DNA of 64,000 nucleotides. It comes from Escherichia phage Bp7. The notes below the pieces were generated by a model. That model ran no database searches and was not told where the DNA came from. It worked only from the letters and a program-made list of their open reading frames with translations. The DNA lies in sequence record NC_019500.1, one strand, 5' to 3'. A program made the position numbers and the translations under genes. Shown here in pieces: positions 12,663-60,493 of this stretch (within the stretch, counting starts at the first letter, position 1; every line of letters starts with the position of its first letter).

Positions 12663-12941
12663 ATGGACCTAAATTCAAAGATTTTAATTCTAGCGTTCGC
12701 TGTGGCTATTTCTTATATTGTTCTTTCGCCTATCATGGATGATGTGGCTTACAAAAGAGAGATAGAGGTTGTAGCAGCGACGTATAATGCTAATAATAAA
12801 GAGTGTCCTAATAAAAATGGGATGGATTTAATTAAGGCCCATTATATGCTTTCCATTACCTCGCCTATACAGAGGAATTGGGTTGAATATAATTTTAACG
12901 ACGTGTTCTATTCTTATTGTCGTAAGCTTAAAAAGCTATAA
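12663..12941 (+). CDS. small membrane/secreted protein (92 aa)
   Basis: N-terminal hydrophobic helix; TATAAATA-like motif at its 3-prime end (12937-12944). Confidence 0.5.
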   Translation: MDLNSKILILAFAVAISYIVLSPIMDDVAYKREIEVVAATYNANNKECPNKNGMDLIKAHYMLSITSPIQRNWVEYNFNDVFYSYCRKLKKL

Positions 12942-23709: not shown

Positions 23710-23747
23710 TAAATACCTATATCTAATTATTATTAAAGGTATAGGTC

Positions 23748-24563
23748 ATGCAAGATTTCGGACATTGGGCGGTATTTGAAGAAACCGATATTAAAAACCA
23801 TATTGGATTTGTATACGTAATCACTTTTGAAGATGGCAAAAAATATGTAGGTGCTAAAAAGATTTGGAAACGAATTAAAGCTGCACCTTGCACATTTAAA
23901 CGCGGCCCTAAAAAAGGATTTGAAGAATCTGATTGGAAAACCTATACCTCATCATCTAATGAACTAAACGCAATGATAGAAAAGGGTATAAGTCCTAAAG
24001 AGTATCTTATTGTAGGATGGTATCCTACTTGGGGTAAAACTCTTATGGCAGAAATGGAAATGCAATTAGCCAATGATGTTTTACGAGACCCTATGTGGCT
24101 TAACAAGCAAATTGGCGGACATTTCAACCCTAACTGCTTTGACGATTTAACCGAAGATGATATTGCAAGATGGATGGAATTTGATAAAGGGAACGAACAT
24201 GTTTCCTGGCCTATGATGTACAAAATAGGTCAGAAAACCAAATATGTTAAACCTGACGAAGTTGGCGAGTATATTAAATCCGGGTGGCAATTTGGTCGTT
24301 CTAAAACAGAAAAACATTCTGTTACCTATAATTGCTCTAAATTTACTATATGGGACTATCAAGAAAATAAAGCAGTGGAAGTTCTAAATCAAAATGAGTT
24401 TGCTCGTAATAATGATTTAAGTAGTAACCATCTAACTAGACTACTTCAAGGAACTCTCGATCTTATTAAAGATCGCTGGGGACTTCCACCAGATATTGCT
24501 CGTCAGCGTTATAAATTTCAGACGTTTCTTCAGGAACAAAATTTTTATCTAATTCCGAGTTAG
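23748..24563 (+). CDS. GIY-YIG-like homing endonuclease candidate (271 aa)
   Basis: N-terminal GFVYVITFEDGKKYVGAKK resembles the GIY-x10-YIG motif. Confidence 0.45.
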   Translation: MQDFGHWAVFEETDIKNHIGFVYVITFEDGKKYVGAKKIWKRIKAAPCTFKRGPKKGFEESDWKTYTSSSNELNAMIEKGISPKEYLIVGWYPTWGKTLMAEMEMQLANDVLRDPMWLNKQIGGHFNPNCFDDLTEDDIARWMEFDKGNEHVSWPMMYKIGQKTKYVKPDEVGEYIKSGWQFGRSKTEKHSVTYNCSKFTIWDYQENKAVEVLNQNEFARNNDLSSNHLTRLLQGTLDLIKDRWGLPPDIARQRYKFQTFLQEQNFYLIPS

Positions 24564-24932
24564 AAGAATTTTACGGTATGACACGCGGTCAGGCTAACAA
24601 AGCCGTTAAAGATGGAAGAGCCGTTAAATTGGTAGTCGAAAGCAAAGAAGACCACATTAAAAACTTGGCTCTATCGAATTGGTAAAACCGAAAAGACAAA
24701 AGTTACGTCTCAAGTAATGCTTAACAGTTTTAAAGATATAGTTAATCCTATGACCGATACCGAAAAATCAGAAATGATTGAATGGTTGGAAAGTTATATA
24801 ACTTATTTGAAATCTTAATGAGGAAATCGCTTAAATGATTAATTTTTATGGCTTAACCGAATCTATGAATGATATTATCCGGCGCATGGGTGTTGAGTAT
24901 CCTGCTCAATGGTTATTTGTTGTAACTAATAC

Positions 24933-29430: not shown

Positions 29431-30453
29431 ATGAAAATTTTGAATATAGGTGATTTGCATATCGGAGTAAAAGCCGATGACCCTTGGATTCAGGAAATCC
29501 AGCTTAACGGTATTAAACAGGCTGTAGAATATTCTAAAGCAAACAATATTGATACATGGATTCAATATGGTGATTGGTTCGATGTACGCAAGGCTATCAC
29601 CCATAAATGTATGGAATTTAATCGTGGTCTGGTGGAAATTATCAGCGATGCAGGTATTAAAGTCCATGTTATAATTGGTAACCATGATGCAACGTTTAAA
29701 AATAGCATAACTCCTAATGCGGTTTCTGAACTTCTTACTCAGTATGAAAATTTTACTGTTTACGAGAAACCTACTACTGTTAATTTTGATGGCACCGAAA
29801 TTGATTTGATTCCATGGATGTGTGAAGAAAACACGACCGATATCATGGACCATATCAAAAATACTACTGCCGATTTCTGTATTGGCCACTGGGAATTAAA
29901 TGGTTTCTATTTCTATAAAGGAATGAAATCACATGGTTTAGAACCTGATTTCCTTAAGAAGTATAAGCAAGTATGGTCTGGTCACTTCCACACCATTTCT
30001 GATGCAGCAAACGTCAAGTATATTGGTACGCCATGGACCCTGACTGCAGGTGATGAGAACGACCCTCGTGGCTTCTGGATTTTCGATACAGAAACCCATA
30101 AAATGGATTTCATCATCAATGAAACTTGTTGGCATCGTAAGATTCATTACCCGAATGCGACTATCGATTACAAAGATTTTACAAATATTGCGGTTCGTGT
30201 TATAGTCGATAAAATTGATGACGGGCTTACTAAGTTCGAATCTGAACTTGAAAAGGTTGTTCACTCTTTACGTATTGTGTCTAAGGTAGATAACAGTGTT
30301 GATATCGATGATTCTGAAGAGGAAGATGAAGTTAAGTCCCTCTTGGATATGATGTATGATTATATCGATGCCCTTCCTGATGGCCACACTGAAGACGATG
30401 TTAAAGCCCTTAAGACCATGGCTGCACAACTTTATAATGAGGTTACACGATGA
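29431..30453 (+). CDS. 47: recombination nuclease subunit gp47 (Mre11-like)
   Basis: 340 aa; phosphoesterase motifs DLHIG, GDWFD, GNHD, GHWE. Confidence 0.9.
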   Translation: MKILNIGDLHIGVKADDPWIQEIQLNGIKQAVEYSKANNIDTWIQYGDWFDVRKAITHKCMEFNRGLVEIISDAGIKVHVIIGNHDATFKNSITPNAVSELLTQYENFTVYEKPTTVNFDGTEIDLIPWMCEENTTDIMDHIKNTTADFCIGHWELNGFYFYKGMKSHGLEPDFLKKYKQVWSGHFHTISDAANVKYIGTPWTLTAGDENDPRGFWIFDTETHKMDFIINETCWHRKIHYPNATIDYKDFTNIAVRVIVDKIDDGLTKFESELEKVVHSLRIVSKVDNSVDIDDSEEEDEVKSLLDMMYDYIDALPDGHTEDDVKALKTMAAQLYNEVTR

Positions 30454-30713: not shown

Positions 30714-30912
30714 ACATGATTTTCATATTGGCGATGGCTGGTTCGGTAATGTAGAATGGGACGTGGATGGTTCTTGGTATACCGGAACTATGTATGTCAC
30801 TTCTGGATATTCTGAAGGTGTTTCATGGGCCATGGAACTTGACGACGTGTTTGCTTCTTCCGAAGAAATGCTAGAATATGCCGAACAAACAATTCGTGAG
30901 AACAATACATGA
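30697..30912 (+). CDS. hypothetical acidic protein (71 aa)
   Basis: ATG 30697 overlapping upstream gene end. Confidence 0.45.
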   Translation: MTKMYKHDFHIGDGWFGNVEWDVDGSWYTGTMYVTSGYSEGVSWAMELDDVFASSEEMLEYAEQTIRENNT

Positions 30913-32586
30913 AGACTTTTAAGTTAAAGAAAGTAACGTATAAAAATATCATGTCAGTAGGCCAACAGCCTATTACAATCCAACTTGATAAGGTCCAAAA
31001 GACCTTAGTCACAGGTAAAAATGGTGCAGGGAAATCTACGTTCCTTGAAGCTGTTACATTTGCTCTGTTCGGTAAGCCTTTTCGTGATGTTAAGAAAGGG
31101 CAATTAATTAACTCAAGTAACAAGAAAGACCTTTTGGTCGAACTGTGGATGGAATATGATGGCAAAGAATACTACATCAAACGTGGGCAAAAACCGAACG
31201 TTTTTGAAATCTCTTGTGGCGGTGAACGTCTTGATGAATCTGCCAGCAGTAAAGACTTCCAAGCAGAATTTGAACAGCTTATCGGAATGTCCTATGCAAG
31301 CTTCAAACAGATTGTCGTTCTTGGCACGGCAGGGTATACCCCCTTCATGGGTTTGTCAACCCCAGCGCGTCGAAAGCTGGTGGAAGACCTTTTAGAGGTT
31401 TCTGTATTAGCGGATATGGATAAGTTGAACAAATCTTTGATTCGTGAGACTAATAGCCAAATCCAGGTGATAGACGTTAAACAGGATTCTATTACCCAAC
31501 AAATTAAAATTTATAATGACAACGAAGAACGTCAACGTAAATTATCTGGCGAGAACGCGGCACGACTACAAACAATGTATGATGAGCTCGTTAAAGAAGC
31601 CAGGACTGCGAAGGGCAATATAGAAAAACTAACTGATGAATTACTCAATGTCATCGTCGATGATGACCCTAGCGACTCCATGAGTGACCTGAGTAATAAA
31701 GGATTTGCAATCAAGAATGATATGGCAACCTTTACGAAGGTCGTGAAATTATACGAAACTGGTGGCAGCTGTCCTACATGTATGCAAGGATTGGAAGAAC
31801 ACGGGAACATCCTTACTAAAATTAAGGATAAGAACTTTGAGCTTCAAAAATCTTTGGATAAGATTAATGAGCAATACCAAGAGCTCAAACTTATTAAAGA
31901 CCAAGTAACCGAACAACGTAATAAAGCGCTGGCTATTAAATCTCAGATAGCTACTCATAAGCAACAAGCCATTACTGCCGTAGAGAAAGCTAAAAAAGTT
32001 AAAGTATTAATCGACCAAGCAGCTGCTGAGTTCGTAAGTAATGCCGAAGAGATTGCCGCGCTTCAAGCAGAGCTTGATAAAATCGTCTCTACCAAATCCA
32101 CATTGGTAATGGAAAAATATCATCGTGGAATTCTGACAGAATGTTGAAGGATACTGGTATTAAAGGTTCCATTATTAAGAAATACATCCTATCTTTAATA
32201 AGCAGATAAATTCTTATTTGAAGATTATGGAAGCCGACTACGTCTTTACACTAGACGAAGAGTTCAATGAGACGATTAAATCACGTGGACGTGAAGACTT
32301 TAGTTATGCTTCATTTTCACAGGGTGAGAAAGCACGTATTGATATCGCACTACTTTTTACATGGCGTGATATTGCTGAAAAAGTCAGTGGAGCCACATTA
32401 GTACATTAGTGTTGGATGAAGTTTTGATGAGCAGTTGACGCTGAGGCTGTTAAGGCGATTGCAAGTATTCTTAATAATCTTGAAGACAGTAATGTTTTTA
32501 TAATCAGCCACAGGGACCATGACCATCAAGCATATGGCCAGCATTTACAAATGAAAAAGGTTGGTCGATTTACAATTATGGAATAA
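30909..32586 (+). pseudogene. 46: recombination ATPase gp46 (Rad50/SbcC-like), 3-prime end disrupted
   Basis: Walker A GKNGAGKST and zinc hook CPTC are intact to 32147; C-terminal SQGEKARIDIALLF, LVLDEV and ISHRD are spread over shifted frames with an 8-bp tandem duplication at 32395-32410. Confidence 0.75.
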
Positions 32587-32591
32587 GCCTC

Positions 32592-33308
32592 TTATTGAGG
32601 CTTCATTTTACAGTTATCGAAATGCCAACGATTCATATTACCGGAATTCCCTTGTTTACCACAATGAGGGCATTCTACCTTCTTTTCTGATTTTTTGCGC
32701 CCGTTAGGATTTTTCTTACAAAAAACTTTATGAGCCGCAATAACACAGGATTTTCCTGAAAGGCCGCAGAATTCACATTCCACAATTTTATAGACCATGT
32801 TTTCTAGGCCTTTCTTTATTTTTAATTTTTGCTCCTCAGATATAGAGCGGTCCACTTTATTAGGGCCTTTAGGGCAGTTATCGAAATGCCATCTGTTCAT
32901 ATTGCCTACCAATCCAGTTTTACCGCAGTGTGGACAGGTAACTCTAGGCTTTTTTAAAGCGGAAATTGACATTTTCTTTCTGGTTTCTTCCGAGAATTCT
33001 TTATCCTTTTGGACTTCTGAATTCTTACGACGAAGCCATCCAAATAATTTATTTTTAGACCTATCAGCTTTTGGTGAGCTAACTGTCATCATTCTTGCTG
33101 CATAGACTAACGATGCATTATCTGGATGGATTTTAACTAACAACTGATGAGCCAAGTAATGTTCTTCAGGTGTTAAGTCTACCAAGTTTAAAGCGTCGTC
33201 CGTTCCACCCATGCATTGTGGTATAATGTGATGACGTTCTTTATAGGTAGTTAAATTTCTATTAACTGCTCGTTGAATAAGCTTTTCGTATATTGATTTA
33301 TAATTCAT
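32592..33308 (-). CDS. HNH homing endonuclease (Mob-like)
   Basis: Minus strand; HHIIPQCMGG...N...H HNH motif plus repeated CPHCGK...NMNRWHFDNC zinc-binding modules; ATG 33308 after AAGGA. Confidence 0.8.
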   Translation of the reverse strand: MNYKSIYEKLIQRAVNRNLTTYKERHHIIPQCMGGTDDALNLVDLTPEEHYLAHQLLVKIHPDNASLVYAARMMTVSSPKADRSKNKLFGWLRRKNSEVQKDKEFSEETRKKMSISALKKPRVTCPHCGKTGLVGNMNRWHFDNCPKGPNKVDRSISEEQKLKIKKGLENMVYKIVECEFCGLSGKSCVIAAHKVFCKKNPNGRKKSEKKVECPHCGKQGNSGNMNRWHFDNCKMKPQ

Positions 33309-34048: not shown

Positions 34049-34747
34049 ATGAAATTCTCTAAAGAAACTCTGAACATTCTGAAAAACTTCTCCGGTATTA
34101 ACCCAGGTATCATGCTTAAACCTGGTAACACTATTCTAACTCGTTCAGTAACGGGTGCAAGTTATGGTGAAGCTACTGTAAATGACACCTTTGATATCGA
34201 AGCCGCAATCTACGACCTGAACGGCTTCTTAAGTATTCTGTCATTGGTATCTGATAGTGCTGAAGTTTCGGTAAGTGAAGACCAAACCACCTTAATTATT
34301 AAAGACCAACGTTCAACTATTAAATGGCCTATTGCCGACCCAAGTACAATTGCATTCCCAAGCAAAGCTATTCCATTCCCGGTGGCTGAAGTTATTTTCG
34401 ACCTTAAAGCCGAAGATTACCAACAGTTGATGCGTGTGTCCTCTGGATTGAGTATTGATACATTTGCTATCACTGTAGACAACGGTAAAATTGTAATCAA
34501 TGGCTACAAACAAGTTGATGATAAGGACCTGGCACGTCCATTGTATTCCTTAGTGGTTGCAGACCATGATGGTCCTGAATTCAAATTCATTATCAACAAA
34601 ACTAATATGAAAATGATGCCTGCCGATTACCATGTATTGTTATGGGCTCGTGGTGAAGGTCAGGACGCTCGTTTCGCAGCCAAGTTTGAAGGTTCACAAG
34701 CTTCTTATGTATTGGCTATGGAAGCAGGCTCAAGCCACTCGTTCTAA
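34049..34747 (+). CDS. 45: sliding clamp gp45
   Basis: 232 aa; N-terminus MKFSKETLNILKNF resembles T4 gp45; upstream of 44/62. Confidence 0.9.
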   Translation: MKFSKETLNILKNFSGINPGIMLKPGNTILTRSVTGASYGEATVNDTFDIEAAIYDLNGFLSILSLVSDSAEVSVSEDQTTLIIKDQRSTIKWPIADPSTIAFPSKAIPFPVAEVIFDLKAEDYQQLMRVSSGLSIDTFAITVDNGKIVINGYKQVDDKDLARPLYSLVVADHDGPEFKFIINKTNMKMMPADYHVLLWARGEGQDARFAAKFEGSQASYVLAMEAGSSHSF

Positions 34748-35325
34748 TGTATATATGTTATCATAATACGATAACCAACACTAAAACCAAGTGTGTCTAT
34801 CATTATTTTGGTAGACACCGTGTTACTGCTGAAGAATACTACGGTACAGGTAAGTTTGTTAAGAAATGCAAACGAGAAAATGCTATTACTCCAGGTCTTT
34901 GGGAGTTTTGTGTTGAAGTTATCCATACAGTGGATACGTTTAAAGAAGCCAAGATTATTGAAGAAGAGCTTGTTAAAGAAGGCATATCAAAATATGGTAT
35001 CCTTTGTGTTAATAAGAATCCTGGTGGTGATGGCGGTGTGGATTACCACACCGAAGAATCTAAACGTAAAATGTCAGAAACTAGAACAGGAAAATCAAGA
35101 ATATTTTCCGAAAGTCATAAAGAAAATTTAAGTAAACGAGCCAGAAAATACTCTGATGTTTGGTCCGAACCTGTATATTCAAATCTTAAAACCATTTGGC
35201 TGGAAACAGGTATGTTAAAACGCGGACGGTTTAGTACGCTTTTACAAAAATATGGGTATAATTATTCTGCGAATGAATTGAATAAAATTGTTAAACATTT
35301 TAATGAGGAAAATAATAATGAGTAA
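34747..35325 (+). CDS. Seg-like GIY-YIG-family endonuclease candidate, possibly degenerate (192 aa)
   Basis: Inserted between 45 and 44, overlapping both; NUMOD-like repeats (SKRKMSETRTGK, SESHKENLSKRARK); N-terminal GIY-YIG core atypical. Confidence 0.5.
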   Translation: MYICYHNTITNTKTKCVYHYFGRHRVTAEEYYGTGKFVKKCKRENAITPGLWEFCVEVIHTVDTFKEAKIIEEELVKEGISKYGILCVNKNPGGDGGVDYHTEESKRKMSETRTGKSRIFSESHKENLSKRARKYSDVWSEPVYSNLKTIWLETGMLKRGRFSTLLQKYGYNYSANELNKIVKHFNEENNNE

Positions 35326-50564: not shown

Positions 50565-51593
50565 ATGTCATATGTCGATAAAGAATTTGCTGTACGTGCC
50601 TTGAATTACCAACCTAAATTCAGACAAGTAACTGGTAGTGATTTTAAATTAAACTGTCGTTGTCGTGTATGCGGTGACTCTCAAAAAGATGAGAACAAAG
50701 CTCGTTTTTGGGCCTATCCGGCTAATGACGGCTCTGTAATGCTGCACTGTTTTAACTGTGACTATTCAGCAGGAATTAAGAAGTATCTATACGAATACGA
50801 GCCTGATTTATATCGCGAATATATTCTTGAGAAACATAAAGAGCAATCGTTCGGGAGACAAGCTGCACCTAAGGTGGAGATATCTGAAAAAATTAAAGCT
50901 AAGATGCCTGTCATCGAAAAGCTTAATTTCTGTGAACGATTAGATAGGATGCCGAAGGACCATCCTATTATCAAATATGTGACGTTACGTTGCATTCCTG
51001 AAAACAAATGGAACCGGCTGTGGTTTACTAAAGAATGGCCTGCATTAGTTAACTCTGTGAATCCAGGGACCTATTCTAAAGAAATGCCTGAGCCTCGTTT
51101 GGTTATTCCAATTTTCAATAAGAATAAACAAATTGAAAGTTTTCAGGGTCGAGCCTTACGTAAAGATGCTCCACAAAAATATATTACAATAAAAGCTCAC
51201 GACCAAGCTACAAAAATATATGGAATGGATACAGTTGACGAACGTCAGTTGGTGTGGGTAATGGAAGGCCCTATTGACTCTTTGTTTGTTCCGAATGCAA
51301 TAGCAATTACTGGCGGGTCGTTGGACTTGGCTATGGTTCCGTGCAAAGAAACTAGGGTTTGGGCCCTTGATAGCGAAAGCCGCCACCCAGATACTATTTC
51401 AAGAATGAAAAAGCTTATCGAGGCTGGTGAAAAAGTAGTGTTTTGGGATAAGGTCCCTTGGCCTTCTAAAGATATTAACGATATGATTAGAAAAGACGGG
51501 GCGTCGCCGGAAGCAATACTAGAATATATGAAAAGTAATTACAGTCAAGGATTAATGGCTAAATTGAGATTACAACGGTATGCTAAAATATGA
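50565..51593 (+). CDS. 61: DNA primase gp61
   Basis: 342 aa; zinc ribbon CRCRVCGDSQKD...CFNCDY; strong similarity to T4 gp61. Confidence 0.95.
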   Translation: MSYVDKEFAVRALNYQPKFRQVTGSDFKLNCRCRVCGDSQKDENKARFWAYPANDGSVMLHCFNCDYSAGIKKYLYEYEPDLYREYILEKHKEQSFGRQAAPKVEISEKIKAKMPVIEKLNFCERLDRMPKDHPIIKYVTLRCIPENKWNRLWFTKEWPALVNSVNPGTYSKEMPEPRLVIPIFNKNKQIESFQGRALRKDAPQKYITIKAHDQATKIYGMDTVDERQLVWVMEGPIDSLFVPNAIAITGGSLDLAMVPCKETRVWALDSESRHPDTISRMKKLIEAGEKVVFWDKVPWPSKDINDMIRKDGASPEAILEYMKSNYSQGLMAKLRLQRYAKI

Positions 51594-52345
51594 ATTATAA
51601 TAAAATTTATGACGATTTGGTTAATAGGGCCCTTGAAAGGGGTCTTATTAAAGAAAATTTAAAATACTATACAGAATCTCATCATATTATACCTGAATGT
51701 ATAGGTGGGCCTGATATAGATTCAAACAAAGTATTATTTACGGCAAGAGAGCATTTTATAGCTCACATATTATTGTATAAGATTTATAAGTTGCCTAAAT
51801 TAATATATGCTGTGCATATGATGTGCAATTCTAGTGAAAAGCACCAAAGAAATTCTAAGATGTATGACTGGCTTAGAAAGGACCATAAAGCAGCCTTAAG
51901 TAAGAAAATGACCGATGCTTGGAAAGCCCCTGAATTTAGGACCAAAATGGTGGCGGCCTTATACCAAAGGCACAAAGATAAGCCCGTCACAGAGGAGACT
52001 AGGGAAAAACAGTCTAATTCTCTAAAGAGGTATTATAAAGAAAATCCTATCTCTGAAGAAGCAAAAAAGAAAAATTCAGAAGCCCAAAAACAAAGGTTTA
52101 AAGATAGGCCTCAAACAGAAGAAACAAAAAGATTAAGGAAGGACTCATGCAGAAAAACCCAAGGCACCCCTATATGGTTATGTAATTCGAATGGGGTAGG
52201 AATAGAAAAGTTTTCTTCTGCGGCAGAAGCTAAAGAAATCTTAGGATTGTCCGGGCACACCCAAAATATATACACCGCTTGTAAGCGAAACAAAGAAACC
52301 GGGAGATTGTATAAATCCTCCGGTTTAATTTGGAAATATCAATAA
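51590..52345 (+). CDS. HNH homing endonuclease (Mob-like)
   Basis: 251 aa; ESHHIIPECIGGPD...N...H HNH motif with NUMOD-like repeats; N-terminus paralogous to the HNH gene at 32592-33308. Confidence 0.8.
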   Translation: MNYNKIYDDLVNRALERGLIKENLKYYTESHHIIPECIGGPDIDSNKVLFTAREHFIAHILLYKIYKLPKLIYAVHMMCNSSEKHQRNSKMYDWLRKDHKAALSKKMTDAWKAPEFRTKMVAALYQRHKDKPVTEETREKQSNSLKRYYKENPISEEAKKKNSEAQKQRFKDRPQTEETKRLRKDSCRKTQGTPIWLCNSNGVGIEKFSSAAEAKEILGLSGHTQNIYTACKRNKETGRLYKSSGLIWKYQ

Positions 52346-59877: not shown

Positions 59878-60351
59878 ATGAAAATTTATCGAGTGGAGTC
59901 ATCGTTTAGTATCTTAGACAACAGCGATGTTATCACAATCACTCGTCATCAATGTCGCCAATTAACCCCGTATAGAGGCTCATTTGACGAATGGAGTGAA
60001 GGTTGGTTATTGGAAGTAGGTTTCGACAGACCTAATTTTAGACACCATCATACCAATAATAAAAATATTCCATTACCAAGTCAAGACGAATTGTTGGTTA
60101 AAAATTCTAATATGGTAATTAAAACCAAATTCGAACATGAAGATTATAAAGGTGTAGATAACTACATTCCAGGTTGGTTTGTCAATCTCTACCATTTTGC
60201 TTTTGCCAGCGAGTATGATATGATGCGCTGGTTCACTCGTGAAGAGCGTGCTGAATTATCTTCTAAAGGATTTTACCTTGCTGTTACGAAATACCTGAAG
60301 ATGAGTTGTCATTGGTGGCCGCCAAGTAAGGTTCCGCAAATCCCATGCTGA
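59878..60351 (+). CDS. hypothetical protein (157 aa)
   Basis: ORF with GAGGAG RBS. Confidence 0.55.
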   Translation: MKIYRVESSFSILDNSDVITITRHQCRQLTPYRGSFDEWSEGWLLEVGFDRPNFRHHHTNNKNIPLPSQDELLVKNSNMVIKTKFEHEDYKGVDNYIPGWFVNLYHFAFASEYDMMRWFTREERAELSSKGFYLAVTKYLKMSCHWWPPSKVPQIPC

Positions 60352-60493
60352 ACTCGTAGATTTATGAATGAGAACAATATGAAATTTAATTACAACCCTA
60401 AATACACCCCGAATCCAGCAGCTAAACTGATTGATTTGATGTTTTAAGCACTTATGTATGCCTGTTAAACCACTGGAAATTAAGGAACCTGCT

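Follow-up and report, generated by a model that had tools for sequence, protein, structure and literature searches.

The 64,000 nucleotides of the Escherichia phage Bp7 genome analysed here (record NC_019500.1; the 64-kb window) carry the recombination genes in the order 47 - 46.2 - 46, as in other T4-like phages. Gene 46 is followed by a convergent gene for a mob-like homing endonuclease. The features of the locus are listed below with their coordinates in the window and their strand.

29431..30453, + strand: gene 47 (Mre11/SbcD-like partner), intact, 340 aa
30909..32586, + strand: gene 46 as deposited (Rad50/SbcC-like recombination ATPase), 1678 nt
30909..32147, + strand: truncated gene 46 ORF, 412 aa, ending in TGA at 32145-32147
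31014-31040, + strand: Walker A, GKNGAGKST, in the intact frame of the 412-aa ORF
31308-31328, + strand: Q-loop region, within the 412-aa ORF
31770-31781, + strand: CPTC zinc hook (CxxC, coiled coil), intact frame
32141-32188, + strand: MLKDTGIKGSIIKKYI segment of gp46, frame 2
32188-32392, + strand: PIFNKQ...SQGEKAR segment of gp46, frame 1
32311..32337, + strand: ABC signature motif region SFSQGEKAR, frame 1, aligning with the Rad50 signature SGGE in 3qf7
32394-32423, + strand: HISTLVLDEV segment of gp46, frame 0
32406..32423, + strand: Walker B, LVLDEV, frame 0, between lesions 3 and 4
32434-32583, + strand: VDAEAV...ISHRDH...RFTIME segment of gp46, frame 1
32503..32520, + strand: H-loop region ISHRDH, frame 1, past lesion 5
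32395..32410, + strand: direct repeat ACATTAGT-ACATTAGT
32378..32586, + strand: 3' tract of gene 46 (~210 nt), a distinct allele
32592..33308, - strand: mob-like HNH homing endonuclease gene, convergent, intact, 238 aa

Gene 46 measures 1683 nt (560 codons plus a stop) in all five relatives examined, as against 1678 nt in Bp7, a net change of -5 nt. The 412-aa ORF is an exact match to the deposited Bp7 protein (AEN93793.1 / YP_007004117.1), which is annotated as a 'recombination endonuclease subunit' in a record (HQ829472 / NC_019500) of 168,066 bp. Pfam matches are to AAA_23, SMC_N and AAA_29, and both the Walker A motif and the CxxC zinc hook of a Rad50/SbcC-type ATPase are present in gp46 as deposited. 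A first-pass annotation of this DNA had described the frame as open through Walker A and CPTC up to the TGA stop, and the ORF list and three-frame translation bear this out. It had also placed the remaining motifs in other frames, correctly: the segments follow one another in frames 2, 1, 0 and 1. The signature motif, Walker B and H-loop are not found in one polypeptide as deposited, since they lie behind the stop in frames 1, 0 and 1, and they share one frame only once five bases are re-inserted. The likeness to the ABC ATPases T4 gp46, Rad50 and SbcC takes in Walker A, the Q-loop region, the coiled coil with its CxxC hook, the signature motif, Walker B and the H-loop. The deposited Bp7 protein differs from the T4 gp46/Rad50 family in having its C-terminal lobe spread over four frame segments, an arrangement seen in no relative. 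The idea that gp46 works as a split protein, its N- and C-terminal halves being translated apart, was set aside, since different frames encode Walker B and the H-loop.

The segment 32050-32600 was aligned with the corresponding DNA of phages 04086, KIT01 and IME08, and private indels were scanned separately against KIT01, MX01 and WG01. In the alignments with 04086, KIT01, IME08, MX01 and WG01, exactly five 1-nt deletions break the frame of gene 46, and there is no other frame-breaker.

32140..32141, + strand: lesion 1, AAA to AA; AAA in all relatives; private against KIT01, MX01 and WG01
32187, + strand: lesion 2, TT to T; TT in relatives (ACATTCC)
between G32392 and C32393, + strand: lesion 3, T missing; GAGTCC in relatives
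32422..32425, + strand: lesion 4, T5 to T4; TTTTT in relatives
32429, + strand: lesion 5, GG to G, with a synonymous C to T at 32428; GATG as against GACGG in relatives

Lesion 1 leaves AA in place of AAA and is the source of the premature TGA. It corresponds to the shift that had been suspected near 32138-32141. A second suspected shift, near 32186-32190, was correctly located but misidentified as CC in place of CCC; the base lost is the T of lesion 2. The further shift proposed at 32425-32437 is likewise in the right place, except that it consists of two 1-nt losses (lesions 4 and 5) and not of one. The 8-bp tandem duplication reported at 32395-32410 does exist, but it is not a lesion. The repeat is native coding sequence for His-Ile-Ser-Thr-Leu-Val just before Walker B, and the identical 16-mer stands inside the intact 560-codon gene 46 of 04086, MX01 and IME281 (KIT01 has one mismatch); its presence in these intact genes rules it out. 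Alignment to gene 46 of related phages, the check that had been suggested for these claims, thus upholds the frame breaks as five private deletions and removes the duplication from the list.

None of the five lesions was seen in any relative by alignment, private-indel scan or tblastn. Bp7 is a Dhakavirus, and the phages of the collection that come nearest to it in DNA sequence are Dhakaviruses too, namely 04086 (95.2%), followed by KIT01, MX01 and IME281. At every lesion KIT01, MX01, WG01, IME08 and IME281 all agree with 04086, a sparsely annotated and possibly error-prone reference that may contain many indel errors itself and calls for careful use. The 177 kb of the 04086 record (OR842557.1) bear only 148 annotated features, many of its CDSs are fragmentary, and gp47 is entered as an 85-aa piece. 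Among the 2819 phage records matched by tblastn, the best 60 all (60/60) encode the C-terminal 182 aa of gp46 in one unbroken piece, and the metagenomic relatives, which are fragmentary, are also continuous across the lesion sites. K-mers specific to lesion 1 were absent from IMG/VR, and those specific to lesions 4-5 were absent from IMG/VR and the JGI metagenomes. An exact-protein look-up for encoding contigs gave no match. The five private deletions are crowded into 290 bp; against a uniform spread of the 21 such deletions in the window, the Poisson probability is ~6e-8, or ~1e-5 after correction.

Re-insertion of the five bases (A, T, T, T, G) gives a 1683-nt ORF of 560 codons whose product is 99.1% identical in amino acid sequence to KIT01 gp46. 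The repaired protein has the signature motif, Walker B and the H-loop, and it aligns with Thermotoga Rad50 (PDB 3qf7) over both lobes, as it does with Pfam AAA_23 and SMC_N. The peptides that span the lesion sites read GILTEMLKDTGIK, KYIPIFNK and VSGVHISTLVLDEVFDGAVDAEAVK. In this form Bp7 gp46 resembles the other Dhakavirus gp46 proteins, with 97-99% identity and matches to Rad50 structures. In the C-terminal 149 residues, 147 are the same as in KIT01 and 04086, and therefore no decay is evident. Past the premature stop, private substitutions number 2 and private deletions 5, while the 1233 nt upstream in gene 46 contain 30 private substitutions and 0 private indels. The repaired C-terminal part differs from KIT01 at 8 synonymous and 2 non-synonymous positions. 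We looked past the first lesion for the marks of relaxed selection (an excess of substitutions, non-synonymous changes, mixed indels) and did not find them. Judged from the sequence, the pattern of substitutions and deletions is the opposite of that of a decaying pseudogene. The partner gene is in good order as well: the gene 47 ORF matches the Bp7 protein, its product is 99.4% identical to that of KIT01, and the exact protein also occurs in other phage records.

The same type of error recurs in the window outside gene 46. A tblastn search of KIT01 proteins against the window found 55.5, rI.-1 (mobD.6), srd, motB.2 and motB.1 to be split between frames as well. A second alignment resolved seven 1-nt homopolymer deletions in ~180 bp of motB.2/motB.1 (60284-60461): TTT to TT, GG to G, TTTT to TTT, TT to T twice, TTTT to TTT, and CCC to CC. 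Six of these seven are private against KIT01, MX01 and WG01 in the private-indel scan, several private substitutions lie there too, and motB.2 and motB.1 are intact in AnYang, IME08, KIT01, MX01 and WG01. Three private 1-nt homopolymer deletions (24520, GG to G; 24658, A6 to A5; 24683, A5 to A4) affect a SegE-like GIY-YIG homing endonuclease gene (ORF 23748-24563, continuing downstream to ~24820). Its product is cut to 271 aa, whereas 04086, E33 and PSD9 have 357 aa; with three bases lost in all (-3), the original frame is regained before the gene ends. Private 1-nt deletions also occur singly, in A runs, in rI.-1 (13602), 55.5 (26448 and 26503) and srd (57091), with another in the spacer before the regA start codon (36862). 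Taken over the whole window, 21 of the 24 private indels whose length is not a multiple of three are deletions (binomial p=1.4e-4), mostly in homopolymer runs.

Reciprocal tblastn between the window and KIT01, MX01 and WG01 served as a control for frame-split genes. The Bp7 window has 8 frame-split sites, each backed by all three relatives, and KIT01, MX01 and WG01 have 0 sites backed by at least two genomes in the same test. This control replaced an earlier one, a spanning-ORF count of private frame-breaking indels, which was too noisy for the relatives, its counts being raised by compensated pairs and by artefacts of alignment where the sequences diverge. An apparent frameshift at 12935 was dropped from the Bp7 lesions, as it is private to KIT01 instead. 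The error type is scattered over unrelated genes of one record, is absent from the relatives and is biased to deletions and homopolymers, as befits an artefact.

The convergent neighbour of gene 46 encodes a protein 98.7% identical to the KIT01 'mob-like endonuclease', with a match to phrog_655 (homing endonuclease, E=2.6e-68) and a weak Pfam match to HNH_5. The stop of gene 46 is separated from the HNH stop codon by the 5-bp spacer GCCTC (32587-32591), which agrees with the earlier statement that this gene ends 5 bp downstream. The arrangement recurs in KIT01 and MX01: the same HNH gene lies convergent to gene 46 at a distance of 5 bp, and their gene 46 is intact with 560 codons. The 3' tract of Bp7 gene 46 is 97-100% identical to 04086, KIT01 and MX01, which have the HNH gene or share the allele, and only 70-78% identical to IME08 and WG01, which are without the HNH gene. 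The 3' allele is also that of IME281; in 04086 and IME281 gene 46 is intact. This resembles the trace of co-conversion during homing of the mob-like gene downstream, a process known for free-standing homing endonucleases (PMC2988022). An intact mob-like gene adjoining a distinct gene 46 allele of ~210 nt is in keeping with the free-standing mob-type HNH endonucleases of T-even phages (PMC2988022). Lesions 3-5 lie inside the tract and lesions 1-2 outside it. Such a tract is ordinary T-even biology and leaves the frameshifts unexplained. An inverted repeat, AAGCCTC-TTATT-GAGGCTT (32585-32603), reaches from the gene 46 stop across the spacer to the HNH stop, with CATTTT next to it. This repeat may form a bidirectional terminator hairpin shared by the two convergent genes; a consensus terminator scan made no call at this inverted repeat.

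We consider the frame breaks in gene 46 to be a database artefact, real in the deposited sequence and almost certainly not in the phage, with a probability of about 0.9. On this view the five bases would have been dropped in base calling or assembly, where the deposited Bp7 genome has a patch of low quality. Gene 46 of the living phage is most likely normal, with 560 codons, and would encode a full Rad50-like ATPase, which would work with gp47 in the DNA end processing that recombination-dependent replication needs. We infer poor sequencing quality as the cause; the privacy of the deletions, the repair of the frame and the recurrence in other genes are direct observations. A poor read or thin coverage would drop bases in clusters of this kind, confined to patches of 150-300 bp. 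Homopolymer and low-quality-read errors in phage genomes are a close parallel, as the Bp7 deletions are private, of single bases, mostly in short runs and grouped in patches of this size. They fall in essential and non-essential genes alike, and the protein is unchanged once they are corrected. A point of difference is lesion 3, the sole one of the five outside a homopolymer run. Sequencing error was one of three explanations that the first-pass annotation had offered, and it is the one that the evidence favours; the other two, pseudogenisation and damage linked to the HNH gene, are at odds with the repaired C-terminal lobe and the intact genes of KIT01 and MX01.

If the gene were a real pseudogene, the sequenced Bp7 stock would have a shattered gp46 C-terminal lobe and would survive by compensation through host nucleases, uvsW-type suppressors or complementation in a mixed population. 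The frameshifts do stand in the public record, the truncated 412-aa protein is annotated as such, and uvsW inactivation suppresses the DNA-arrest phenotype in T4 (PMC3016281). The same work bears out the earlier remark that gp46/47 is needed in T4: DNA arrest is at its strongest when gp46/47 is inactivated, and both proteins are essential, although this essentiality is established for T4 and not for Bp7 (PMC3016281). Bp7 is still propagated in the laboratory (PMC10987938), and in publications from 2013 to 2024 it was worked with as a live phage that forms plaques. One frameshift alone would have inactivated the gene, and four more add nothing under selection. Every indel in gene 46 is a deletion, five deletions stand beside only 2 private substitutions in a lobe that matches at 147/149 residues once repaired, gene 47 is intact, no broken C-terminus (0) occurs among the best 60 relatives, and like deletion clusters are found in unrelated genes. 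Real pseudogenisation is thus very unlikely, and it is a little harder still to believe that Bp7 is truly without the gp46 C-terminal lobe and yet has normal lytic growth. Were the lobe lost, this lineage would either do without the Mre11-Rad50-like complex or have its role taken over by the host or by other functions of the phage, and real lesions would challenge the need of recombination-dependent replication for the gp46/47 complex.

The proximity of the HNH gene raises another possible origin: the 3' end of gene 46 would have been nicked or cut repeatedly nearby, and its error-prone repair would have left small deletions behind. The gene ends 5 bp from gene 46, and three of the five lesions are inside the last ~210 nt, which resembles a co-conversion tract. 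However, KIT01 and MX01 keep gene 46 intact with the same HNH gene in the same position, 04086 and IME281 do so with the same 3' tract, and the same lesions are found in no other HNH-carrying relative. Two of the lesions are outside the tract, the motB.2/motB.1 cluster is far from the HNH gene, and the repair that goes with homing in T4-like phages is accurate and directed by homology (PMC2988022). The endonuclease, itself predicted from sequence, is most improbable as the source of the frameshifts. A further reading is that full gp46 is made from the sequence as deposited by programmed recoding, through ribosomal frameshifting, slippage in transcription or bypassing; short homopolymer runs are present at four of the five sites. 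Translational bypassing in gene 60 of T4 is a textbook precedent. Against recoding, four or five successive +1-type corrections would be required, the runs are merely 2-4 nt long, and no site is conserved as a frameshift, all relatives having the gene in one frame. We regard recoding as scarcely credible.

With dropped bases in the record as the preferred reading, what gene 46 yields is a note on data quality in the Bp7 record; it is no biological discovery, and its biological import is small. Through RefSeq NC_019500 the 412-aa 'SbcC-like subunit' is passed on in truncated form, and errors of this type break six or more other genes of the 64-kb window. Bp7 serves as a Dhakavirus reference genome and as an assembly scaffold (e.g. 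PMC6163469). Users should not take the Bp7 truncations for gene loss.

The SegE-like gene touches on a separate matter. Gene 49 (endonuclease VII) was found neither at its syntenic place (23710-24835) nor anywhere in the 64-kb window; the slot is filled by this SegE-type GIY-YIG gene, 357 aa at full length. In T4, gene 49 is indispensable for packaging. No gp49 match (E<=1) turned up in the complete genome of 04086, and none (0/6) of the phages that share the GIY-YIG gene (04086, E33, ABTNLS3, PSD9, FB and LQ5) is among the 42 Dhakavirus records with a gp49 of at least 95% identity. The Tegunavirus phiR1-RT has the same layout at the gene 49 slot, and in RB16 and Aeromonas phage 65 gp49 is replaced by other nucleases (PMC2993671). 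Two more free-standing homing endonuclease genes lie in the window. One lies between genes 45 and 44 (34747-35325, + strand) and encodes a 192-aa phrog_314/NUMOD3 protein. Another is a second mob-like HNH paralogue (51590-52300, + strand; phrog_655), which is 39% identical to the first and adjoins gene 61.
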